A DNA stretch of 64,000 bases, taken from NCBI GenBank assembly GCA_964570585.1, contig CAZMYR010000003.1, positions 22,749 to 86,748 of the forward strand, given 5' to 3'. This DNA comes from an uncultured Planctomycetia bacterium. GTDB taxonomy: Bacteria > Omnitrophota > Gorgyraeia > JABMRG01 > JAFGKX01. The translations under genes were made by a program, and so were the position numbers. Positions 1,536 through 60,579 of the stretch are shown here, one piece after another; positions within the stretch are counted from its first letter, which is position 1; every line of letters begins with the position of its first letter. The notes under the pieces are model-generated. The model saw only the letters and a list, made by a program, of their open reading frames with translations. It had not been told where the DNA came from and made no database searches.

Positions 1536-2159
1536 CTAATCTTTTTTTCTTTTGAATATTCCTTTTATTCGGTTAAACCACCCTTTTTTCTTTTCAGGTT
1601 TAGGTTTTACTTTTTCAGCTTCTGAGGGTTCTTCCTTAGCTTTTGGAGGTTTCTCTTTAGGCTTAGCTTTTAACTTCTCAGGTGCCGGCTTCTCTTTTAT
1701 TTCTTCAATTGGTTTTGGTTTTTCCCTGGGCGCCTCTACAACTTTCTTCGGGGCTTCTTTGGCTTTGGCCTTTACCTTCTTCTTCGGCTTTGGCTCCTCT
1801 TTTAGTTTTTCTACTAACTCAAGTATGGCCATTTGGGTGCCATCGCCATGACGACTATTTAACTGAATAATTCTAGTATATCCACCATTTCTGTCTTTGA
1901 ATAAAGGAGCTATATCTTTTACTAAGCGTGACACTAAAGACCTATCCTGTAACATATCAAAAGCCGCTCTCCTTGCTTGTAGTGTCTCTTTCTTGCCCAA
2001 TGATATTAGCTTATCTAAAAGCCTGGACGCCTCCTTGGCTTTAGGTAATGTTGTTTTGATCCTCGAATATATAAGAGCGTTCCTCGCTAAGGACCGCATT
2101 AATTCCTTGCGAGCTGATTTATTTCTCCCAAAACGTTTATTTAATTTGCCGTGTCTCAT
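1536..2159 (-). CDS. rplQ: 50S ribosomal protein L17 with about 85-aa Lys/Glu/Pro-rich C-terminal tail
   Basis: N-terminal 120 aa typical of L17; operon position after rpoA. Confidence 0.9.
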   Translation of the reverse strand: MRHGKLNKRFGRNKSARKELMRSLARNALIYSRIKTTLPKAKEASRLLDKLISLGKKETLQARRAAFDMLQDRSLVSRLVKDIAPLFKDRNGGYTRIIQLNSRHGDGTQMAILELVEKLKEEPKPKKKVKAKAKEAPKKVVEAPREKPKPIEEIKEKPAPEKLKAKPKEKPPKAKEEPSEAEKVKPKPEKKKGWFNRIKGIFKRKKD

Positions 2160-3130
2160 TTTTTCTTTTTGATTTTCATTCCAAGTGAAATGCCCATATT
2201 ATCCAAAATGCCAATAATTTCATTCAAAGACTTTTTGCCAAAGTTTCTATATTTTAGCATTTCACTTTCGGTCTTGCCCACTAAATCGCCTATAGCCTTT
2301 ATCTTGGCCTTTTCTAAACAATTGCCGCTTCTTACTGAAAGTTCAAGTTCGGTAACCGGGATTTTAAGTTTCCCCTGAAGCTCTTCATCTTCCTCCGGCT
2401 CCTCAGTAATCTCTAAGTCTTCCGGAAGTTTGCCGAAATTGACAAAAATATCAAGATGTCTTTGCAAGACATTGGATGCATAGAGCAAAGCTTCTTTAGG
2501 GCTCACCGCTCCGTTAGTGCATATTTCTAATATAAGTTTATCATAATCTGTAATCTGGCCTACCCTGGTATCTCCAACATTGAAATTCACTTTAGTAACG
2601 GGGCTAAAAATAGAATCTATAGCAATGACTCCTATTGGGGCGCTTTCTTTTTTGTTTTTTTCCGCCGGAACATATCCACGGCCTTTGCCCAAACCCATTT
2701 CTACATTAAATTTAATATTTCTTGTCAATGTAGCTATATGTAAATCCTTGTTTATGATATCCACTGTTTCATCAGCAATTATATCTTTAGCTGTGACCTT
2801 GCCTTTTCGTTGAACTTTTATATATAATGGTTTTGGTTTAAGGGCATGGCTTCTTATCACAACTTTCTTAATATTAAGTATAATTTCAGGCACATCCTCA
2901 ATCACTCCGTCTATAGCAGAAAATTCATGCTGAATCCCTTCGAATCTTACATTAGTTACTGCGCTACCTTCGACTGAAGATATAAGTGCCCTCCGTAAAG
3001 AATTTCCCAGAGTTATTCCATAACCTCTTTCGAACGGTTCTGCTATAAATTTACCGTAAGTATCTGTCAGGGTAGATTCATCACATTCGAGAGTTTTGGG
3101 CATTTCAAATTCTTTCCAAGCTATTCCCAT
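2156..3130 (-). CDS. rpoA: DNA-directed RNA polymerase alpha subunit
   Basis: 324 aa, conserved alpha NTD/CTD; 4-nt overlap with rplQ. Confidence 0.95.
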   Translation of the reverse strand: MGIAWKEFEMPKTLECDESTLTDTYGKFIAEPFERGYGITLGNSLRRALISSVEGSAVTNVRFEGIQHEFSAIDGVIEDVPEIILNIKKVVIRSHALKPKPLYIKVQRKGKVTAKDIIADETVDIINKDLHIATLTRNIKFNVEMGLGKGRGYVPAEKNKKESAPIGVIAIDSIFSPVTKVNFNVGDTRVGQITDYDKLILEICTNGAVSPKEALLYASNVLQRHLDIFVNFGKLPEDLEITEEPEEDEELQGKLKIPVTELELSVRSGNCLEKAKIKAIGDLVGKTESEMLKYRNFGKKSLNEIIGILDNMGISLGMKIKKKK

Positions 3131-3206
3131 CTCTTTTTACCTCCAATTTTTGCAAAGCAAAAATTGTCCCAAACAGTGCGACGAAAAGGAGCACTGGAGG
3201 AACAAT

Positions 3207-3833
3207 TTACTTCGAATATAATTCTACAATAAGCTGGACCTGAATCGGAAAACCAACATCTTCTTTTTTAGGAAGCCTCTCAATTTTAGCCGTTAAAAGT
3301 TTTTCATCTACATTTATCCAACCGGGTACGCCTCTTTCTTTTAAGTCTTGCATTCTTTCGGATACAAGCTTAAATTGGTCCTTCTTGGCATTTACCTTTA
3401 TAGTATCTCCTTTGCCAACTAAGTAAGATGGCCGGTCTACCTTTTTTTCATTAACCATAATAAAACCGTGGGTAACCATTTGCCTTGCCTGAGACCTGGA
3501 AGGAGCAAAACAGCACCTAAAGGCTACATTGTCTAACCGCCGTTCTAAAAATTGCAGAAGGGCCTCACCGGTGACGTCCCGTGACCTCTCTGCTTTTTTA
3601 AAATAATTTCTGAATTGTTTCTCTAGCACTCCGTATATTGTCTTGGCTTTCTGCTTTTCTCTAAGCTGTAAACCAAAATCGGAAAGCTTTCTTCTCCGTT
3701 GACCATGTACGCCGGGTTTATAACTGCGCCTATCTAAGGCGCACTTCTCAGTTACGCAACGATTACCTTTAAGAAAAAGTTTTACGCCTTCCCTTCTGCA
3801 CAACCTGCACGATGCTCCTATATACTTTGCCAT
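3207..3833 (-). CDS. rpsD: 30S ribosomal protein S4 (start trimmed to the ATG behind an AGGAGGA site; track ORF over-extends into a repeat)
   Basis: MAKYIGASCRLCRREG N-terminus matches S4; RBS tcctcct at 3836-3842. Confidence 0.9.
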   Translation of the reverse strand: MAKYIGASCRLCRREGVKLFLKGNRCVTEKCALDRRSYKPGVHGQRRRKLSDFGLQLREKQKAKTIYGVLEKQFRNYFKKAERSRDVTGEALLQFLERRLDNVAFRCCFAPSRSQARQMVTHGFIMVNEKKVDRPSYLVGKGDTIKVNAKKDQFKLVSERMQDLKERGVPGWINVDEKLLTAKIERLPKKEDVGFPIQVQLIVELYSK

Positions 3834-3911
3834 TATCCTCCTAGTTTTGCTTGCGTTTATTGGGTTTGTAGGGTTTATAGGGTTATAACTCAATAAACTC
3901 TATAAACTCAA

Positions 3912-6712: not shown

Positions 6713-8062
6713 CTAGCGTCTCGACCTCAATTTACCTTTCCTCAAGAATCCTTCATAATGTCTCATTAAAAGCTGGGATTCGATCTGTTTCATTGTATCT
6801 AACATAACCCCAACTGTAATTAATAAGGCTGTTCCGCCGAAGAAACTGGCTATTAAAAAGGGTATGTTTAGCCATCTTGATATTATTCTTGGAAATACAG
6901 CTATCAAAGCCAAAAATATAGCTCCAGGCAATGTAACTCTTGTCAATATTCTATCAAAATAACTTGCCGTAGGTTTACCCGGCCTTATGCCCGGGATAAA
7001 TCCTCCGTACTTTTTCATATTATCAGCCACATCTACAGGATTAAATGTAATTGCGGTATAAAAATAACAGAAAAATACTATCAAACCGGAATACATTGTA
7101 AAATAAAGTATGTTTCCTCTCATCAGCGCATTAGCCATCTTCTGGAATGTAGGATTAGGAAAAAAACCAGCAATTGTTGCCGGAAAAAGTAATAAAGATT
7201 GCGCGAATATAATCGGTATAACCCCGGCGTGATTTACCCTGAAAGGAATATATGTGCTTTGGCCGCCGTAAACCTTTCTGCCAATTATTCTCTTGGCATA
7301 TTGCACCGGTATTCTGCGCTGTCCCTGGGTAATTATAACTACTGCGACAATAACCCCAACCATAATAATTACCATTGCTATCAACGTAAGCACATCTATC
7401 TGCCTTCTGGCTGGCGCAAAAGGCGATACCAACAAAAATAGTTGATTTGTCGCTGTAGGCAATCGGGATATTATACTAGCCGTAATAATAAGCGACATTC
7501 CATTACCAATACCATATTCAGTTATCTGCTCGCCTAACCACATTATAAAGGCAGTGCCGCTGGCTAAGGTTAAAACTGTTAATAATCTAAAGCCCCAGCC
7601 CGGAAATTGAACTATCTGGACACCTTGAAAATGGGCCGGGTTTTCCAACCATAGACTAATGAAAGTAGCTTGTATTACAGCCAGAACTACCGTGCCATAT
7701 CTGGTATATTGGGTAATCTTTCTTCTGCCTTCTTCCCCACCTTCTTTGGCTAATCGCTCAAGCTGCGGTATAACTGTAGTGAGAAGCTGCATAATGATGG
7801 AGCTGGATATATACGGCATAATACCTAAAGCGAATATGGTCATATTCCGCATAGCTCCACCACTAAACAGATTCATAATGCCAAAAAGTGTGCCGCCGGT
7901 TGTCCTGGCTATATTATCAAAGAACTGCGCTAATGCTGCCCCATCTATACCGGGAGTAGGGACAAAACAGCCTATTCTATAGACAGCTACCAACCCCAAG
8001 GTAAGAAATATTTTCTTTCTTAGATCCGGGACTTTTAATATATTAGCTAAAGCTGCTAACAT
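6713..8062 (-). CDS. secY: preprotein translocase subunit SecY
   Basis: 449 aa, 10 TM segments, conserved. Confidence 0.95.
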   Translation of the reverse strand: MLAALANILKVPDLRKKIFLTLGLVAVYRIGCFVPTPGIDGAALAQFFDNIARTTGGTLFGIMNLFSGGAMRNMTIFALGIMPYISSSIIMQLLTTVIPQLERLAKEGGEEGRRKITQYTRYGTVVLAVIQATFISLWLENPAHFQGVQIVQFPGWGFRLLTVLTLASGTAFIMWLGEQITEYGIGNGMSLIITASIISRLPTATNQLFLLVSPFAPARRQIDVLTLIAMVIIMVGVIVAVVIITQGQRRIPVQYAKRIIGRKVYGGQSTYIPFRVNHAGVIPIIFAQSLLLFPATIAGFFPNPTFQKMANALMRGNILYFTMYSGLIVFFCYFYTAITFNPVDVADNMKKYGGFIPGIRPGKPTASYFDRILTRVTLPGAIFLALIAVFPRIISRWLNIPFLIASFFGGTALLITVGVMLDTMKQIESQLLMRHYEGFLRKGKLRSRR

Positions 8063-8162
8063 CTTTTTTTAGTACCGTTTACGGTTTCAAAGGGGTAAGT
8101 GTCCCCTAATTCATTCTTTGCTGGGGGGCATTTACCTCTTTGAAACTGTAAACGGTACTTTC

Positions 8163-8621
8163 TTAACGGGATTGAATTTTTTCAATGCTTCCGCCTGTTT
8201 TTTTAATAGCACTTTTTGCAGAATTTGAAAAGGCATGCGCAGTAACAGTAAAATTCTTTTTAAGTTTTCCTTTGCCTAAAATCTTTATGGGTTTTTTTAT
8301 AGTCTTTATTAATCTTTTATCTTTTAATAAAGACGGTGTTATATGAGTCCCCTCTTTAAAAATATTTAATTTCTCTAAATTAATAATCGAATATTCTTTT
8401 TTTTCTCTTGGCGTAAATCCTCTTTTTGGGATCCTCCTCATTAATGGCATCTGGCCTCCTTCGAAGCCAAAGGTCCGCTTTGAGCCTGACCTTGACCTTT
8501 GCCCTTTGCTGCCTCTGCCACCGGTTTTACCTCTGCCAGAGCCCATCCCTCTGCCTTTTCTTCTCTTAGGTCTCCTGGCGCCTTTAGGAGATTTCATGTC
8601 CTGTATTTTCATTTGCCTCAC
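8163..8621 (-). CDS. rplO: 50S ribosomal protein L15
   Basis: Gly/Arg-rich N-terminus typical of L15. Confidence 0.9.
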
Positions 8622-9196
8622 TCGGACTGCTTTTCCAGCAGCTCATTCTTGTAGCGCAACTTTTTTAGTCCATCCATAGTTGCCTTTATAACATTTGATG
8701 GCGTCTGCGATTTTAGGCTCTTGGTTAATATATCTTTTATACCTGCTGCATCGCAAACCGGCCTTATAACGTTACCTGCGATGACACCTGTACCTTCTCC
8801 CGCTGGTTTAAGAAGCACAACGGCTGCGCCATATCTGCCAATCACCTCATGGGGTATAGTGCTTCCTTTAACAGGGACATTTATCATATTCTTTTTAGCA
8901 TCATTGATACCCTTTTTAATCGCATTGGGAACCTCATTTGCTTTCCCGAAACCACAGCCTACATTACCCTTTTTATCTCCTACTACTACCACTGCACCAA
9001 AATTTAATTTTCGGCCCCCCTTTGTAACCTTAGTGGTTCGTTTAATGGAAATCACCTTCTCAATAGTTTCTTCCTCAGGATGTATTTCCTTGTAAGTCTT
9101 TTTTAATTCTCGAGGGATTACCTTTTTTATCTCTTTGGCTGATTTTTTGTCTGCCTCGTCTTTTTTAAATTCTTTTTGGTCTTTCTTCTCTACCAA
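8618..9196 (-). CDS. rpsE: 30S ribosomal protein S5 with Lys/Glu-rich N-terminal extension; start probably TTG at 9196 behind GGAGG (track begins at 9208)
   Basis: [19 protein letters not shown] core; no in-frame ATG upstream of the core; directly abuts rplO with no L30 gene. Confidence 0.85.
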
Positions 9197-9265
9197 GTTA
9201 GCCTCCAAAATTTACGAAAGTAAATTTTGTCCCGAACGATGCGACGAATAGGAGCATCGGAGGGA

Positions 9266-9622
9266 CTAAAACCGCAAACCGTTTTTACGGCAAGCTTCTG
9301 CAAACTCTTTTACCCTTCCGTGATAACGATAGCCACTTTTATCAAATTTGACCTGTTTCATATTTGCCTTCTGAGCTTCTTTAGCTAAAAGTTCGCCCAA
9401 TGCCCTGGAAGCGGTAATGTTACCCTTGTGTTTAAAATTATCTCTCAATCCTTTATCCAGCGTTGAGACAGACAGCAATGTCTTGCCTTCAACATCATCT
9501 ATTAATTGAGCAGTCATATTATTAAGACTCCTGTAAATACAAAGGCGGGGTCTCTCTTTTGTGCCAAGCAATTTCTTCTTTCCTCTTAAATATCTTCTTC
9601 GTCTTGCGTCTTTTACCTTCAT
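9266..9622 (-). CDS. rplR: 50S ribosomal protein L18
   Basis: 118 aa, conserved. Confidence 0.9.
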   Translation of the reverse strand: MKVKDARRRRYLRGKKKLLGTKERPRLCIYRSLNNMTAQLIDDVEGKTLLSVSTLDKGLRDNFKHKGNITASRALGELLAKEAQKANMKQVKFDKSGYRYHGRVKEFAEACRKNGLRF

Positions 9623-10652: not shown

Positions 10653-10662
10653 TACTTTCTCC

Positions 10663-10750
10663 ATGTTGGTGCCATGCACTGCGGTGCCACCCTACGTGGC
10701 AAAACTGTATATTTAAAAGGTAGGGTGGCACCGCAGTGCATGGCACCATT
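10663..10750. repeat. palindromic element family A, copy 1: 28-bp perfect arms TGGTGCCATGCACTGCGGTGCCACCCTAC around a 24-nt loop
   Basis: read directly; fills the rpsN-rpsH spacer; second copy at 13147-13234 has the loop inverted. Confidence 0.85.
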
Positions 10751-10752
10751 TC

Positions 10753-10938
10753 TCACCAACTTGCCTTAGTAACGCCTGGTATTTCACCACTGGATGCTAA
10801 TTCCCTAAAACAAATTCTACACAATTTAAATTTCCTAATGTACCCTCTAGGCCTACCGCACCTTTGACAACGATTGTAAGCCCTCACTTTAAACTTAGGT
10901 TTCTTTCTTTGTTTTTCTATTAACGCTTTCTTAGCCAT
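10753..10938 (-). CDS. rpsN: 30S ribosomal protein S14 type Z (zinc-binding)
   Basis: 61 aa with CxxC...CxxC. Confidence 0.9.
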
Positions 10939-13146: not shown

Positions 13147-13234
13147 CCATGTTGGTGCCATGCACTGCGGTGCCACCCTACCTTTTAAATATACAGTTTT
13201 GCCACGTAGGGTGGCACCGCAGTGCATGGCACCA
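13147..13234. repeat. palindromic element family A, copy 2 (same arms as copy 1, loop reverse-complemented); occupies the whole rpsC-rplP spacer and abuts the rpsC stop codon
   Basis: read directly; arms identical to 10667-10748. Confidence 0.85.
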
Positions 13235-13930
13235 TTACTTACGTTTTGGTTTTACGGCTTGCGTCTTAAGCTTTTCGCTATCTTTATTTTCATCCCTTTT
13301 ACCAGGGAGTATCTCGCCTCTGCATACCCATACTTTAACACCAATTAGACCATAAGCGGTATGTGCTTCACAAAAGCCGTATTCTATATCTGCTCTAAAT
13401 GTCTGTAATGGGACCTTCCCTTCCTTGTAAACCTCTGAGCGGGAGAGCTCAAGGCCGCCAAGTCTCCCAGAACATCTTATTTTTACCCCCTCTGCGCCGT
13501 GATTCATAGTCATCTGCACCGCTTTTTTCATGACCCTCCGAAAAGCTACCCTTTTCTCTATTTGAAAAGCGACGTTTTCAGCAATTAGCTGAGCATTTAC
13601 CTGTGGGTCTTTAACCTCTTTGATATCTATAAAAACATCCTTATTTGTTACGTTGGTCAAATCATCTCTTAATCTATCTATATCTGCTCCCTTCCTACCG
13701 ATTATGATTCCCGGCCTGGCAGTATGAATGATAGCCCGTATTCTGTTGCTGGCTCTTTCAATCTCTATATTTGATATCGCAGCAGAAAAATATTGCTTTT
13801 TAATATAATCTTTTATTTTAAGATCTTCGTGAAGAAACTCAGCAAAATTCTTTGATTTCGAAAACCATCTGGATTTCCATGGCTTTATATATCCGACTCT
13901 TAAACCATATGGATGAGTTTTTCGTCCCAA
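13235..13930 (-). CDS. rpsC: 30S ribosomal protein S3
   Basis: KH domain, 231 aa with K-rich tail. Confidence 0.95.
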   Translation of the reverse strand: MGRKTHPYGLRVGYIKPWKSRWFSKSKNFAEFLHEDLKIKDYIKKQYFSAAISNIEIERASNRIRAIIHTARPGIIIGRKGADIDRLRDDLTNVTNKDVFIDIKEVKDPQVNAQLIAENVAFQIEKRVAFRRVMKKAVQMTMNHGAEGVKIRCSGRLGGLELSRSEVYKEGKVPLQTFRADIEYGFCEAHTAYGLIGVKVWVCRGEILPGKRDENKDSEKLKTQAVKPKRK

Positions 13931-13931
13931 T

Positions 13932-14366
13932 TTATTTTTTTCCTCCAGTCTTTACAGCTTTTTTTTCTTTTTTACCCTGTAACTTTTCAACTTTTTTAAC
14001 TTTTGGAACTTTTTTAACTGTTTTAGATACCGGCGTTAAGGTATCCAATTCAACAGTCAAATGACAGGACCTTTTTCTAATCATGGCTGCCATACCCATA
14101 GCTCGGGCTTTATATCTCTTTAGCATAGGTCCGCCGTCCGCAAATATCCTGCAAATATATAAATCATTTTCATCAACGTTAGGCAGCCTTTTCGCGTTAG
14201 CTACTGCAGAGTAGACAGCTTTATAAATATAAGATGCTGCTTTCTTATTCGTATTTTCCAATATGGAGAGGGCTACAGGCACAGTCTTGTTCCTAATTAA
14301 AGGCAGAAGGAGCCTTAGTTTCTTCGGAGAAATCCTCAAATATTTTATTTTTGCTTTCGCTATCAT
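13932..14366 (-). CDS. rplV: 50S ribosomal protein L22 with K-rich C-terminal extension
   Basis: conserved core plus about 30 aa tail. Confidence 0.9.
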   Translation of the reverse strand: MIAKAKIKYLRISPKKLRLLLPLIRNKTVPVALSILENTNKKAASYIYKAVYSAVANAKRLPNVDENDLYICRIFADGGPMLKRYKARAMGMAAMIRKRSCHLTVELDTLTPVSKTVKKVPKVKKVEKLQGKKEKKAVKTGGKK

Positions 14367-17735: not shown

Positions 17736-18935
17736 CTACTCTATTATCTCCGTAACAACTCCTGCACCTACCGTCCTGCCGCCTTCTCTTATAGCAAACC
17801 TTAATTCTTTTTCCATGGCGATAGGCGTTATAAGAGATCCTTCTAAGGTTACGTTGTCACCCGGCATTACCATCTCAGTGCCTTCCGGAAGTTTTATTGT
17901 CCCGGTAACATCGGTGGTTCTAAAATAGAATTGGGGACGATAGCCGTTGAAGAAGGGGGTATGCCTTCCGCCTTCTTCTTTGCTTAACACATAAACCTTT
18001 GCTTTAAATTTAGTATGCGGGGTTATGGAACCTGGCTTGGCTAAGACCATACCTCTTTCTAGGTCTTTCTTTTCTACGCCACGAAGAAGTATTCCTACGT
18101 TGTCTCCGGCTTGACCTTCATCCAAGAGCTTCCTAAACATCTCAACCCCTGTGACTACACTCTTTTTGGGGGCAGGACGCATACCTACTATCTCTATATC
18201 TTCGTTTATCTTGACTTTTCCTCTTTCTATTCTACCTGTTGCTACTGTGCCTCTTCCGGTTATGGAGAAGACATCTTCTATAGCCAAAAGGAAGGGCTTA
18301 TCAATGTCTCTTTTTGGAGTAGGGATGTATTCATCCACTGCCTTTAAAAGCTCCATGATTGGCTTGGTGGCTTCATTACCAGGGTCTCCCTCTGCTTCCA
18401 TGGCTTTTAAAGCACTTCCTCTTATAATGGGGATTTTGTCTCCCGGAAATTCATATTTTGAAAGAAGTTCCCGGACCTCAAGCTCTACTAAATCTAGGAG
18501 CTCAGGGTCATCAACCATATCTACCTTGTTTAAGAATACAACTATATATGGGACGTTTACCTGGCGGGCTAAGAGGATATGCTCTCTGGTCTGAGGCATA
18601 GGTCCATCAGCTGCTGATACCACCAAAATGGCGCCGTCAGCTTGAGCTGCTCCGGTAATCATGTTCTTAATGTAATCGGCATGCCCAGGGCAGTCTATGT
18701 GGGCATAATGGCGGTTTTCGGTTTCATATTCAACGTGGGCAATGGCTATTGTTATTCCTCTTTCTTTTTCCTCTGGGGCATTGTCTATTGAGTCAAAAGT
18801 CCTGACATCAGCCATACCTTTTTTATTTAAGACCATAGTTATAGCCGACGTAAGACAGGTCTTGCCATGGTCTACGTGGCCTATGGTACCGATGTTTACG
18901 TGTGGTTTACTCCTTACATATTTTTCCTTTGCCAT
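17736..18935 (-). CDS. tuf: elongation factor Tu, copy 1 (start trimmed to MAKEK; track used an upstream TTG)
   Basis: GHVDHGKT motif; identical to copy 2 except the last codons. Confidence 0.95.
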
Positions 18936-21053: not shown

Positions 21054-21106
21054 ATGTAATTAACTTTTTTAACTTTTTAAACTTTTAGAACCTTTTAAAC
21101 TGTTTT

Positions 21107-21577
21107 TCACCATCGAAAATGCGCAAATGCTCTATTTGCTTCTGCCATCTTATGGGTGTCCTGTCTCTTCTTTATTGCAGCGCCCTGATTCTGATAAGCC
21201 TGCAGAATCTCATCGGCTAAACGTTCTTTCATCGGTTTGCCTTTTTTTGCTTTTGCAAAATTGCGTATCCACCTGAGCGCAACTGCAGTACCCCGGTCAG
21301 TTTTAACCTCTACAGGTATCTGATACGTTGCACCCCCTACTCGTCTGGGTTTAAGTCCGACTCTAGGCCTGGCATTTTCTATAGCTTTCTTGAAAATCTC
21401 TAAAGGGTTATCTTTACCTGATCTTTTTTCGATTATATCAAAAGCCCCATAAACTATTTTCTCAGACGTAGATTTTTTCCCTTTTAACATTACTATATTT
21501 ATAAACTTCGAAACCAGTTTTGAATTATATTTAGGGTCAGCTATTATATCTCTTTTTGGCGCTCTTCTCCGCCTCAT
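21107..21577 (-). CDS. rpsG: 30S ribosomal protein S7
   Basis: 156 aa, conserved. Confidence 0.95.
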
Positions 21578-33581: not shown

Positions 33582-34780
33582 TATTCCATTATCTCCGTAA
33601 CAACTCCTGCACCTACCGTCCTGCCGCCTTCTCTTATAGCAAACCTTAATTCTTTTTCCATGGCGATAGGCGTTATAAGAGATCCTTCTAAGGTTACGTT
33701 GTCACCCGGCATTACCATCTCAGTGCCTTCCGGAAGTTTTATTGTCCCGGTAACATCGGTGGTTCTAAAATAGAATTGGGGACGATAGCCGTTGAAGAAG
33801 GGGGTATGCCTTCCGCCTTCTTCTTTGCTTAACACATAAACCTTTGCTTTAAATTTAGTATGCGGGGTTATGGAACCTGGCTTGGCTAAGACCATACCTC
33901 TTTCTAGGTCTTTCTTTTCTACGCCACGAAGAAGTATTCCTACGTTGTCTCCGGCTTGACCTTCATCCAAGAGCTTCCTAAACATCTCAACCCCTGTGAC
34001 TACACTCTTTTTGGGGGCAGGACGCATACCTACTATCTCTATATCTTCGTTTATCTTGACTTTTCCTCTTTCTATTCTACCTGTTGCTACTGTGCCTCTT
34101 CCGGTTATGGAGAAGACATCTTCTATAGCCAAAAGGAAGGGCTTATCAATGTCTCTTTTTGGAGTAGGGATGTATTCATCCACTGCCTTTAAAAGCTCCA
34201 TGATTGGCTTGGTGGCTTCATTACCAGGGTCTCCCTCTGCTTCCATGGCTTTTAAAGCACTTCCTCTTATAATGGGGATTTTGTCTCCCGGAAATTCATA
34301 TTTTGAAAGAAGTTCCCGGACCTCAAGCTCTACTAAATCTAGGAGCTCAGGGTCATCAACCATATCTACCTTGTTTAAGAATACAACTATATATGGGACG
34401 TTTACCTGGCGGGCTAAGAGGATATGCTCTCTGGTCTGAGGCATAGGTCCATCAGCTGCTGATACCACCAAAATGGCGCCGTCAGCTTGAGCTGCTCCGG
34501 TAATCATGTTCTTAATGTAATCGGCATGCCCAGGGCAGTCTATGTGGGCATAATGGCGGTTTTCGGTTTCATATTCAACGTGGGCAATGGCTATTGTTAT
34601 TCCTCTTTCTTTTTCCTCTGGGGCATTGTCTATTGAGTCAAAAGTCCTGACATCAGCCATACCTTTTTTATTTAAGACCATAGTTATAGCCGACGTAAGA
34701 CAGGTCTTGCCATGGTCTACGTGGCCTATGGTACCGATGTTTACGTGTGGTTTACTCCTTACATATTTTTCCTTTGCCAT
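33581..34780 (-). CDS. tuf: elongation factor Tu, copy 2 (start trimmed to MAKEK)
   Basis: identical to copy 1 including the 5' leader. Confidence 0.95.
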
Positions 34781-34897: not shown

Positions 34898-34952
34898 CAA
34901 TCCCCGTTTTCACGGGAACCGTTTTCATGGAGACAAGTTTTACGGGGATTGG
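34898..34952 (-). promoter_or_regulatory. 12-bp perfect hairpin CCAATCCCCGT...ACGGGGATTGG whose 3' arm includes the CCA end of tRNA-Thr; inner hairpin CCCGTTTTCACGGG
   Basis: read directly. Confidence 0.45.
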
Positions 34953-35025
34953 AGCCCATGACCAGGATTGAACTGGTGACCTCGTCCTTACCAAGGACGT
35001 GCTCTACCAACTGAGCTACATGGGC
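34950..35025 (-). tRNA. trnT: tRNA-Thr (anticodon GGU)
   Basis: hand-folded: GCCCATG acceptor, anticodon loop TTGGTAA, T-loop TTCAATC. Confidence 0.85.
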
Positions 35026-45229: not shown

Positions 45230-45274
45230 TTGGGACGTCCTGCAGGGGGGGCACCCTGCAGGACGTCCCCAACC
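45230..45274. repeat. palindromic element family B, copy 1 (GGGACGTCCTGCAGGG-N6-CCCTGCAGGACGTCCC)
   Basis: read directly; inverted copy at 51973-52018. Confidence 0.85.
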
Positions 45275-45649: not shown

Positions 45650-47900
<2,251 letters not shown>

Positions 47901-51966: not shown

Positions 51967-52086
51967 CTAGCATGGTTGGGGACGTCCTGCAGGGAGGCAA
52001 CCCTGCAGGACGTCCCCACTACTTACATCAGTCTCCTGCTGAAGGATTATCTTCTCTCTTTTCGGCTTTGGGGTTTTGTTTTTCAT
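51967..52086 (-). pseudogene. duplicated 5' fragment of ruvB (first 17 codons, 52 bp identical to 50846-50897) fused in frame to codons from palindrome B; 39-aa ORF
   Basis: read directly; [20 protein letters not shown] versus Ruv[21 protein letters not shown]. Confidence 0.6.
51973..52018. repeat. palindromic element family B, copy 2 (inverted relative to copy 1)
   Basis: read directly. Confidence 0.85.
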
Positions 52087-58422: not shown

Positions 58423-58553
58423 TTAAACTTCCGCTCTATTCTTTCGGCAGCCCGACTCTCCCAGACTCGTGGGACTCGTAGCTTTGCGTCCCATTCTTAC
58501 GAATGGTTTGCCTTTATCGAGAATTTCCTTTAAAAGAGCTTTTTGTTTCTACA

Positions 58554-59212: not shown

Positions 59213-60373
59213 CTATTTCCCCATGCCGATATTCTGGGCTCGCTGGAAGACTTTTCCTTCGGTTTGGATAGATGGGGCGATTATCAGCTTTGTTTTCTGC
59301 ATTTCTTTTATATTGCGGGCGCCGACATTGCCCATAGAAGTGGTGAGTGCACCCATTAAATTCTGAGTTCCATCATCCAATCTTGCAGGGCCGAATAATA
59401 TCTCTTTTAATGTGCCGGTCGTTCCCACCTTTATTCTGGTGCCACGTGGCAGGTTTGCGTGAGGAGTAGCCATACCCCAGTGATAACCTCCGCCAGGGGC
59501 TTCTTTTGCTCTGGCAAAAGCAGAACCTACCATAACAGCATCGGCACCGGAGGCAAATGCCTTGCATATATCCCCACCGGTACTCATTCCACCGTCTGTT
59601 ATAATGGGGATGTATTTTTTCTTCTTCTTAAAATAATTGTTTCTTGCTGCAACACAATCGACAGTAGCAGTCACTTGCGGAAGACCAATTCCTAAAACTC
59701 CTCTTGTGGTGCAGGCAGCGCCAGGGCCGATTCCTACCAAAAGGCCGTTTATTCCTGTTTCCATAAGCTCAAGCGTAGTTTTGTAGCTGCAGGTATTTCC
59801 GACAATTACAGGGATTTTCATGTTTTGGCAGAATTTTTTAAAATTTAGCACCTTGTATTCTTTGGATATATGTTTTACGGTTGTAACTGTTGACTGGACC
59901 ACAAATATATCACATCCGGCATCCTGGGCTATTTTGCCGAACCTCTCCGCTCTTTGCGGTATGGCACTTACTACTGCCGGAACTCCTTTAGATTTAATTT
60001 CCTTTATCCTTTTTACTATTAACTTCTCTTTTATTGGCTTCGTATATATGCTTTGGACTAGTTCAGTCGCTTCCTGAGGCGCGGCTTTAGCTATTTTCCT
60101 CAAAACAATATCTGGATTTTCATATCTTGTCTGGATGCCCTCTAAATTTAATACAGCAAAACCTCCGAGTTTGCCAAAGGCAATTGCAAATCGGACATTA
60201 ACCACTCCGTCCATCGCTGCTGCGATTATAGGGACATGAAATTTGTGTTTGTCTATCTTCCAGGATGTATCAACTTCATTTGGGTTTATGGTTACATCAC
60301 CGGGAACAAGTGCTACTTCATCAAAGCCATAACAACGTCTTGCGGTTCTATCTTTTCCTATATATAATCCCAT
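59213..60373 (-). CDS. IMP dehydrogenase/GMP reductase family protein lacking the CBS pair
   Basis: 386 aa TIM barrel with conserved IMPDH motifs. Confidence 0.8.
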   Translation of the reverse strand: MGLYIGKDRTARRCYGFDEVALVPGDVTINPNEVDTSWKIDKHKFHVPIIAAAMDGVVNVRFAIAFGKLGGFAVLNLEGIQTRYENPDIVLRKIAKAAPQEATELVQSIYTKPIKEKLIVKRIKEIKSKGVPAVVSAIPQRAERFGKIAQDAGCDIFVVQSTVTTVKHISKEYKVLNFKKFCQNMKIPVIVGNTCSYKTTLELMETGINGLLVGIGPGAACTTRGVLGIGLPQVTATVDCVAARNNYFKKKKKYIPIITDGGMSTGGDICKAFASGADAVMVGSAFARAKEAPGGGYHWGMATPHANLPRGTRIKVGTTGTLKEILFGPARLDDGTQNLMGALTTSMGNVGARNIKEMQKTKLIIAPSIQTEGKVFQRAQNIGMGK

Positions 60374-60388
60374 CTGCTTCTCCTTTGC

Positions 60389-60480
60389 AGTTCTAAAAGT
60401 TCTAAAGGTTCTAAAGGTTCTAAAAGTTCTAAAAGTTCTGAACTTTTGGAACTTTTTAACTTTTTAAACTTTTTTAACTG
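60389..60480. repeat. paired complementary tandem arrays (GTTCTAAARG)n / (AACTTTTT)n upstream of the IMPDH-family gene
   Basis: same family as 46776-46876. Confidence 0.9.
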
Positions 60481-60579
60481 TTTAACCTACAGATTATATC
60501 CACATGCAAAATTATGTCAATACAAATTGCTTACACAGATAATCGCAGATTTAGAACAGATGATAGCAGATATCCCTGA

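Follow-up and report, generated by a model that had tools for sequence, protein, structure and literature searches.

A previously undescribed, Omnitrophota-specific family of two-hairpin intergenic elements, with two members inside ribosomal-protein operons

Two stem-loops situated before rpoA and rpsE in a 64-kb stretch of Omnitrophota DNA (hereafter the window, meaning the whole stretch that was analysed) are real and strongly covarying structures, yet they are not a regulator specific to ribosomal-protein operons. They belong to a previously undescribed, well-defined and Omnitrophota-specific family, whose unit consists of a hairpin with a large conserved loop (hp1) directly abutted by an A/U-rich palindromic hairpin (hp2). 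The explanation that we favor, with modest confidence, is that each of the two sites is one copy of a roughly 60-nt intergenic repeat, bipartite and palindromic, which is specific to some Omnitrophota lineages and is REP-like in character. The Omnitrophota are uncultured and often ultra-small organisms, and to our knowledge nothing is known of their non-coding DNA; a search of the literature likewise recovered no description of such an element in this group. Comparison of RpoA sequences places the window in Candidatus Omnitrophota, the proteins of the loci L003-L009 being 63-72% identical to that of the window and everything else about 50% identical.

The degenerate pattern by which the initial annotation had defined the stem-loop matches the window exactly at two sites of 38 nt each (Table 1), with no third match in the window when up to 3 mismatches were allowed and none in 100 shuffles. 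The sense strand of both copies is the minus strand, as it is for the flanking genes, which NCBIfam profiles identify as S4 (3207-3893) followed by RpoA (2156-3130), and L18 (9266-9622) followed by S5 (8618-9208). In the sense RNAs (GUUCCUCCAGUGCUCCUUUUCGUCGCACUGUUUGGGAC and GUCCCUCCGAUGCUCCUAUUCGUCGCAUCGUUCGGGAC) hp1 is built of an outer helix of 5 bp, an internal loop with unequal sides (UC versus UUU or UUC), an inner helix of 6 bp and a terminal loop of 11 nt that reads UCCUWUUCGUC in both copies, with folding energies of -12.7 and -14.8 kcal/mol (z = -3.3 and -4.3 against shuffles). Both copies fold as had been described, including the double compensatory change, the inner helices of the two being two compensated pairs apart. 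The description of their flanks needs slight amendment: both copies were said to start at the stop codon of the upstream cistron, which is right for copy 2, although copy 1 begins only after a short gap, and the reported succession of an A/U hairpin, GGAGG and a start codon stands, although the hairpins are 9 bp each rather than 8-9 bp. For copy 2 the predicted fold of an 86-nt construct contains both hp1 and hp2. The start of rpsE is most likely the TTG at 9194-9196 rather than the first in-frame TTG, which overlaps the Shine-Dalgarno sequence, because the S5 profile match begins downstream and the preferred TTG lies 5 nt after GGAGG. Two other peculiarities of this ribosomal-protein cluster are that rpsE overlaps rplO directly, with no rpmD (L30) between them (8163-8621), and that L17 (207 aa) is much extended at its C terminus and partially matches the 'sunset domain' variant.

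Table 1. Positions in the window of the two hp1-hp2 copies and their immediate flanks
Feature	Position	Strand	Description	Covariance-model score (bits)
rpsD stop codon	3207-3209	-	TAA, 3 nt upstream of hp1 copy 1	
hp1 copy 1	3166-3203	-	outer helix GUUCC/GGGAC, internal loop UC/UUU, inner helix CAGUGC/GCACUG, loop UCCUUUUCGUC	55.3
hp2 copy 1	3145-3165	-	9-bp A/U hairpin AAUUUUUGC-UUU-GCAAAAAUU, flush with hp1 (read from the sequence)	
Shine-Dalgarno sequence and rpoA start	3128-3144	-	GGAGG 3140-3144, ATG 3128-3130, immediately 3' of hp2	
rplR stop codon	9266-9268	-	TAG, its last base being the first G of hp1 copy 2	
hp1 copy 2	9229-9266	-	outer helix GUCCC/GGGAC, internal loop UC/UUC, inner helix CGAUGC/GCAUCG, loop UCCUAUUCGUC	59.4
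hp2 copy 2	9207-9228	-	9-bp A/U hairpin AAAAUUUAC-UUUC-GUAAAUUUU, flush with hp1	
Shine-Dalgarno sequence and probable rpsE start	9194-9206	-	GGAGG 9202-9206, TTG 9194-9196	

A relaxed search recovered hairpins with the same loop and bulges on different stems in L008, another Omnitrophota MAG, where they sit between map and infA and after rplQ, and not at the junctions occupied in the window. These first four sequences from the window and L008 show 100% pairing, with 7 of the 11 pairs changed on both sides. The initial covariance model was built from the four-sequence alignment, in which the L008 copies differ by a 1-nt indel and an N stands as placeholder in the internal loop on the 3' side. 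Run on the window with filters off, this model scored nothing above 14 bits apart from the two known copies, and across ribosomal-protein loci totaling 1.37 Mb, drawn from other phyla and from five further Omnitrophota, it detected nothing beyond L008; likewise, 1.2 Mb from other phyla contained no hp1 hits. Metagenomes were then scanned with the pattern TYCYTCNNNNNCTCCTWTTNGTCGNNNNNT, which lets the inner stem vary and prescribes the 5' arm and bulge as well as most of the loop. This yielded at least 122 matches in at least 120 loci, and both helices are complementary in 71 among the matches listed. The remainder, in which the helices are not complementary, look like chance matches, and two matches on viral contigs were set aside as chance for the same lack of stem complementarity. 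The covariance model subsequently collected at least 72 hits, including second copies on several contigs.

In the alignment of 72 hits, standard pairs occupy 97.6% of the pair cells, as against 80.2% in shuffles and 28-46% with slid partners; changes on both sides are seen in 131 pair cells, and none of 500 shuffles reached the observed covariation score. RNAalifold, applied to a plain MAFFT alignment of 47 full units, recovered both hp1 and hp2 with compensatory changes at 12 of 18 pairs. At least 67 copies are unique, and among them 32 distinct inner stems occur. Hence the view that covariation marks a functional RNA structure, originally drawn from two copies, is borne out to the extent that this is a genuine structure under selection, covarying across 67 distinct sequences: the search for further copies by covariance model succeeded in metagenomes (72 hits), though not beyond the two copies within the window, and the differences between copies are not those of random drift after a recent duplication. 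Against Rfam, the whole window gave no match at either site at gathering thresholds, and the 200-nt regions around each site gave only noise, and no ribosomal-protein leader, at E-values up to 10. Elsewhere in the window there is a c-di-GMP-I-GGC riboswitch aptamer (58442-58521, minus strand), which scores 72.1 bits against a gathering score of 59.

The consensus unit spans about 60 nt, of which hp1 contributes 37-38 nt and hp2 19-24 nt. Upstream of hp1 there is an A at position -2 in 79% of copies and a G at -1 in 77%, with a weak T/A bias at -4/-3. The outer helix of hp1 is a 5-bp RUCCY/RGGAY, most commonly GUCCU/AGGAU, and is followed by an internal loop that is usually a 2x2 pyrimidine mismatch, UC/UC. 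This mismatch is invariant in 65 of 67 copies, an invariance imposed in part by the scan pattern, which fixes the 5' TC and the first 3' T, although the mismatch is also found in copies that the pattern did not constrain. The inner stem is 6 bp of free sequence closed by a C-G pair and carries an 11-nt loop, usually UCCUWUUCGUC. The window copies and that of L163 form a subtype with C-G as the first inner pair and a 3-nt bulge on the 3' side. Following hp1 with no spacer, hp2 is a 9-10 bp A/U-rich palindrome with the consensus CAAWUUUGC-UUC-GCAAAWUUG, a loop that is mostly UUC, and a G after it. Its pairs are Watson-Crick in 413 of 419 cases, with a single G:T, a near-purity that is as expected of a DNA palindrome.

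Invariance of the hp1 loop in the 67 metagenome copies was likewise largely imposed by the pattern; at positions that it left open, the N position is C in 78% and the W-restricted position is A in 72%. Nine copies were obtained with no constraint on the loop, and in 7 of these it is at most 3 changes from the consensus (for example UCCUAAUUGUC, UUCUAUUCGUC and UUCCGUUGGUC). In the other two, at 592-640 of L128 (CATAGAACTTTG) and 217-266 of L138 (GTGTGAAAACTAT), the loops are unrelated, and both copies keep the canonical outer helix, the TC/TC mismatch and the adjacent hp2. From their sequences, these two suggest that there may be several loop classes on one common scaffold. Conversely, the loop signature C-UCCU-NNNN-GUC-G recurs on a different, 12-bp stem in the second module of larger composites of the L008 type. 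Such composites contain hp1 and are found at 7826-7955 and 11600-11780 of L008 and also in L113, L126, L127, L146, L149, L161, L167 and L191. In these a GCGAGGCCGAAGGCCGAAGC-type hairpin lies upstream, and downstream, in place of hp2, there is a 12-bp hairpin, AAATTCGCACTTATAACTTACG-CTCCTTACAGTC-GCGTAAG..., with the related loop. The two L008 composites are about 85-90% similar to each other, and the rpsD>rpoA spacer of the same locus holds parts of the composite's module.

Thirteen genes of the ribosomal-protein cluster were mapped in the loci L003-L009. In L003-L007, the closest Omnitrophota compared, the rpsD>rpoA spacer is about 15-48 nt long and holds only a Shine-Dalgarno sequence, and at rplR>rpsE there is a similarly short spacer or coding sequence without the element. 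The window thus has the element at two junctions where L003-L007 lack it, which makes it a lineage-specific addition at both. Other junctions also vary: at L5>S14 the element is present in L169 but missing from L003 and L006 (both at 76-87% protein identity) as well as from the window, and at P-II>GlnA the element is in sense orientation in L120 and L198, with the whole composite inverted in L113. At PNPase>dut, by comparison, it is present in both L109 and L202 with different stems, the proteins being about 25% diverged, and this retention suggests long-term maintenance. The marker genes of the member contigs (L5, S14, S19, EF-Tu, SecE, RuvA/C) have their best matches in Omnitrophota.

Copy density of the hp1-hp2 element looks low. 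The 64-kb window has 2 copies and 21 kb of L008 has 2 copies of hp1 and 2 related hairpins; a second copy occurs on eight short contigs, and seven member contigs of 12-14 kb have none. All-against-all clustering of the 336 ORFs on member contigs disclosed no recurrent non-syntenic neighbor, transposases included, and the clusters of neighboring ORFs are all syntenic housekeeping genes. There is no target-site duplication: of 46 copies, 4 have matching flanking 2-mers and 3 have matching flanking 3-mers, no more than expected by chance. Apart from the L008 composites no near-identical copies that would mark recent movement were seen.

When tRNAs were called with ARAGORN and proteins with a greedy ORF set, two settings were found to dominate, namely sense-oriented positions between co-directional protein genes and positions beside tRNA genes. 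All copies lie in spacers, any overlap being limited to 1 nt of a stop codon or to 2 nt of the CCA of a tRNA. In the sense copies a stop codon precedes hp1 by 1-17 nt and the Shine-Dalgarno sequence begins where hp2 ends. Junctions verified with NCBIfam are LpxC>FabZ, PNPase>dut, GrpE>(DnaK), (XseA)>XseB, RuvC>RuvA and P-II>GlnA, and the occupied L5>S14 junction of L169 has the support of tblastn against the reference loci. By inspection we add KsgA>GatC, PstB>PhoU and copies upstream of S19, S20, L21, HPr, Obg and RNase Y.

Among the matches listed, 22 copies have a tRNA within 36 nt of hp2. Of these tRNAs, 16 are encoded on the opposite strand: the CCA end reaches into the final bases of hp2 and lies at a constant 18-21 nt from hp1 (32 nt in L165). 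In the 6 cases with a tRNA on the same strand, it starts 19-35 nt after hp1, and in L150 and L187 it is flush with, or a few nucleotides from, the end of hp2. The arrangement in L150 runs TATAAT, hp1-hp2, tRNA-Pro, tRNA-Arg and an inverted hp2-hp1, and a near-consensus sigma-70 promoter is also found just upstream of a copy in L147 and in L168. A different hairpin (AAUCCCCGU...ACGGGGAUU) directly follows the CCA of tRNA-Thr in the window (34920-34975, minus strand), which indicates that tRNA 3' ends here carry structured trailers even without the hp1-hp2 module.

Roughly a third of the copies run antisense to the genes around them, yet their orientation is far from random. At protein-gene junctions 31 copies are sense and 11 antisense (p = 0.003), tRNAs face hp2 in 22 cases against 2 (p = 4e-5), and orientation depends on the type of neighbor (Fisher p = 0.001), counts that all rest on crude ORF calls. 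In either orientation of the element, hp2 is nearly always turned towards the gene end. Sense-context hp1 has 7 G:T against 1 A:C, a strand asymmetry that is not significant (p = 0.16); for hp2 this test is uninformative, as it is almost purely Watson-Crick.

We favor a REP-like repeat because of the size of the family, its presence at unrelated junctions, the filled and empty sites among relatives, the occurrence of both orientations and the formation of mosaics. Accordingly we propose that the module spreads or is duplicated as DNA, in the manner of REP elements and other stem-loop repeats, and that the hp1 loop, the mismatch and the 5' AG plausibly constitute the recognition surface for a putative protein. 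By landing inside operons the module would, to judge from its position, be transcribed. In mRNA, hp1 could then shield the 3' end of the cistron before it, and hp2, which should read almost identically in either orientation, might leave the adjoining GGAGG single-stranded or keep the Shine-Dalgarno sequence or tRNA end in a defined context. In the window the element would thus be a passenger or modulator of the alpha and spc operons rather than a ribosomal-protein sensor. The orientation biases and the 7:1 ratio of G:T to A:C suggest some RNA-level or positional selection, which a purely selfish DNA element would not predict. Together with the long retention at some sites, these biases and the wobble ratio, the latter not being significant, leave real room for a role in host RNA punctuation or processing, and the hp1-hp2 module may have a generic function in RNA processing, which the initial annotation also raised, or in RNA stability.

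The alternative that survives best takes this further, and we regard it as a serious if unlikely possibility. Here the module would be a dedicated RNA punctuation signal, that is, a cis RNA element for a putative Omnitrophota RNA-binding protein or endonuclease, with cleavage at the boundary of hp2 and the gene setting the ends of mRNAs and tRNAs and leaving hp1 behind as a protective 3' hairpin. Strong covariation of the helices and conservation of the loop and bulges are consistent with such a signal, although G:U is almost absent from hp2 and two copies carry unrelated loops on the same scaffold. The placement of hp2, flush with a Shine-Dalgarno sequence or tRNA 5' end or overlapping a tRNA CCA, points the same way, as do the facing of tRNAs towards hp2 (22 to 2), the sense bias at protein junctions and the copies lying just downstream of sigma-70-like promoters in L147, L168 and L150. 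Being a palindrome, hp2 would present the same gene-proximal RNA hairpin in either orientation; hp1 would not, and in the third or so of copies that are antisense its loop reads GACGAAUAGGA in the transcript. Recurrence of the motif C-UCCU-NNNN-GUC-G on a different, longer stem in L008-type modules also argues for recognition of this kind, and the 7 G:T against 1 A:C in sense-context hp1 would fit, but for the lack of significance of that asymmetry. The same junction being filled or empty among relatives, the element is dispensable there. A narrower version, in which a dedicated putative protein reads the C-UCCUnnnnGUC-G loop and UC/UC mismatch of hp1 to punctuate operons, and hp2 marks the cut sites at mRNA 5' ends and tRNA 5' or 3' ends, appears rather doubtful.

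It is improbable that the element is an intrinsic terminator or attenuator, possibly a bidirectional one, tuning read-through between cistrons and ending tRNA transcripts. It does always lie 3' of something, be it a stop codon within 1-17 nt (sense) or a tRNA CCA (antisense); hp2 has an A-tract/U-tract layout, and UUUUUGCUUUG comes after the extended hp1 stem of window copy 1. However, a scan of the window for promoters and terminators gave no signal at either copy. An intrinsic terminator is a G+C-rich stem with a short loop and a U-run behind it, but the hp1 loop is 11 nt, the family consensus continues from hp1 as CAAAUUU... without a U-run, and G-C pairs in hp2 number only about 2. Furthermore, some sites fall inside the obligatorily co-transcribed pairs L18>S5, L5>S14 and XseA>XseB, and a terminator has no need of a conserved 11-nt loop.

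Still less probable is a cis-acting translational switch, in which CCUCC of the hp1 5' arm or CUCC of the loop would pair with the downstream GGAGG and gate translation of rpoA or rpsE. Both window copies have an exact CCUCC at positions 4-8 and a CUCCU in the loop, and one 86-nt MFE fold of copy 1 pairs the Shine-Dalgarno sequence with UUUGCUUU. In the family consensus, however, the 5' arm is UCCUUC rather than CCUCC, making this a trait of the window subtype and not a feature of the family, and many members precede tRNAs or other sequence without a Shine-Dalgarno sequence. Moreover, the pairing between loop and Shine-Dalgarno sequence is only 4 bp, and the hp1 fold dominates the ensemble.

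The least probable of these readings is the one with which the window copies were originally credited, a site in the alpha and spc operons for autoregulation by a ribosomal protein or for processing specific to these operons: although both window copies lie in ribosomal-protein operons directly upstream of a Shine-Dalgarno sequence and other members occur at L5>S14 and upstream of S19, S20 and L21, the orthologous junctions of the closest Omnitrophota (L003-L007) are empty, the same module is found at many unrelated, mostly non-ribosomal junctions or by tRNAs, with about a third of the copies antisense, and no Rfam ribosomal-protein leader matched at E-values up to 10, such that autoregulation is largely ruled out by the family distribution. 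Four further candidates were considered and set aside: a SECIS or read-through stimulator, as the stop codons are TAA and TAG; a boxA/Nus site, the resemblance to which is weak and fails in antisense copies; a T-loop or tRNA mimic, as the hp1 loop lacks the invariant T-loop positions; and an integron attC, as there are no R'/R'' boxes and the contexts are housekeeping genes.

The window has several other families of intergenic palindromes, two of them inside the ribosomal-protein cluster. One repeat family of the core operons is a 96-nt near-perfect palindrome (CCATGTTGGTGCCATGCACTGCGGTGCCACCCTACG...) present at 10661-10756 and 13147-13242, that is, at the rpsN/rpsH and rplP/rpsC junctions, with its central 24 nt or so inverted between the two copies. 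Since other palindrome families are also present, including this one at two ribosomal-protein junctions, the window genome evidently tolerates such insertions in core operons. Tandem 9-nt repeats of GTTCTAAAA followed by inverted GAACTTTTT repeats occur at 46759-46900 and 60372-60499, and also at 13981-14039 and 21054-21112; judging by their sequence, these arrays could form long A/T-rich hairpins. A G+C-rich perfect hairpin repeat of 40 nt (GGGACGTCCTGCAGGG...CCCTGCAGGACGTCCC) is found at 45232-45271 and 51979-52018. A motif of about 35 nt (sense AGCACCGTTTGGGAAAGCAAAGGGGCA...) recurs at 8124, 18953, 29954, 31748, 34798, 37448, 53929 and 53965, just upstream of several genes, as before tuf after tRNA-Thr, and may be a shared leader or promoter-proximal element. 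The EF-Tu gene tuf is itself present in two copies, detected as a 300-nt duplicate of 99% identity (17737-18036 and 33582-33881), one of which lies in a tRNA-Thr/tuf/tRNA-Trp/secE region.

The family thus provides a module with a usable covariance model that marks spacers inside the most conserved operons as well as the ends of tRNA genes. Its polarity rule, by which hp2 faces the gene, is not explained by simple selfish spread. For annotators it is a caution against reading such hairpins as operon-specific regulators, and it might serve as a lineage marker in binning and as a basis for a phylogenetic-profiling search for the recognizing protein. If the module does define RNA ends, it would be a natural insulator of cistrons, and if it is an RNA punctuation signal, we would be dealing with a phylum-specific system for defining RNA ends, or else with a new, non-RAYT class of hairpin-recognizing mobile DNA.

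Among known systems, the S4 leader of the alpha operon and the S8 site of the spc operon are rRNA mimics conserved at one orthologous position. Like these, the window copies lie inside the alpha and spc operons beside a ribosome-binding site, but unlike them the element is missing from the orthologous junctions of relatives and is found at many other junctions. The malE-malF REP and the RNase III sites of phage T7 are intercistronic hairpins with stabilizing or processing roles that have experimental support. Here too the hairpin is placed between a stop codon and the next ribosome-binding site, where hairpins of this kind are expected to protect the upstream segment and set relative expression; the present element differs in being known from sequence and in having about a third of its copies antisense. 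It is not a MITE, as the unit lacks both target-site duplications and terminal inverted repeats, and it is not a CRISPR repeat, as the window has single copies 6 kb apart and no array was found in it.

The closest parallels are with REP, BIME and REPIN elements, which like hp1 are imperfect palindromes of about 38 nt inside transcription units, typically just after coding regions. As in REP families, there are several copies in both orientations, the stems vary but stay paired, and the units are combined into mosaics. A broad definition describes REPs as extragenic, short, transcribed palindromic sequences that seldom overlap coding regions and share a consensus in multiple copies per genome (PMC12306157), and the present element is extragenic, short and stem-loop-forming with a consensus, its transcription being inferred from position in operons. 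Binding of REPs by the RAYT transposase of E. coli depends on a mid-stem mismatch and on conserved bases at the 5' foot of the REP (PMC3479197), and hp1 similarly has a 2x2 mismatch in mid-stem and conserved bases at its 5' foot. There are also clear differences. In contrast to GTAG-REPs, hp1 has no GTAG at its 5' foot, where AG alone is conserved, and its loop is large and conserved at 11 nt, whereas REP loops are usually 2-5 nt. Unlike the inverted REP of a REPIN or BIME, the partner hp2 is an A/U palindrome unrelated to hp1, and an inverted pair of whole modules is seen only in L150, where it flanks two tRNAs. The low apparent copy density and the strong bias of hp2 to tRNA ends and Shine-Dalgarno sequences further set the element apart from REPs. 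In REPIN-RAYT systems the RAYT, a Y1/HUH transposase, is a single-copy gene with repeats on its flanks; no RAYT was seen in the clustering of the 336 ORFs on member contigs.

That said, REP families of 20-100 copies, untagged families and families without a dedicated transposase are all documented (PMC3733652). CGTC-tagged REPs carry an unpaired CGTC at the foot of a stem of 8-9 bp whose loop measures 4-5 nt (PMC3733652); here, by contrast, the 11-nt hp1 loop has CGTC at its 3' end, the bases before hp2 are GATC, GATG or GACG and not CGTC, and the unit is a fixed hetero-pair of hairpins. The element also resembles in its habits the families surveyed by Di Nocera et al. 2013, such as the Rickettsia RPE and the Neisseria dRS3, which are lineage-specific, transcribed palindromes located mostly downstream of ORFs (PMC3733652). 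The stems described there have A/T pairs first and often a CCA tail (PMC3733652), which recalls the overlap of hp2 with the CCA of tRNA genes.
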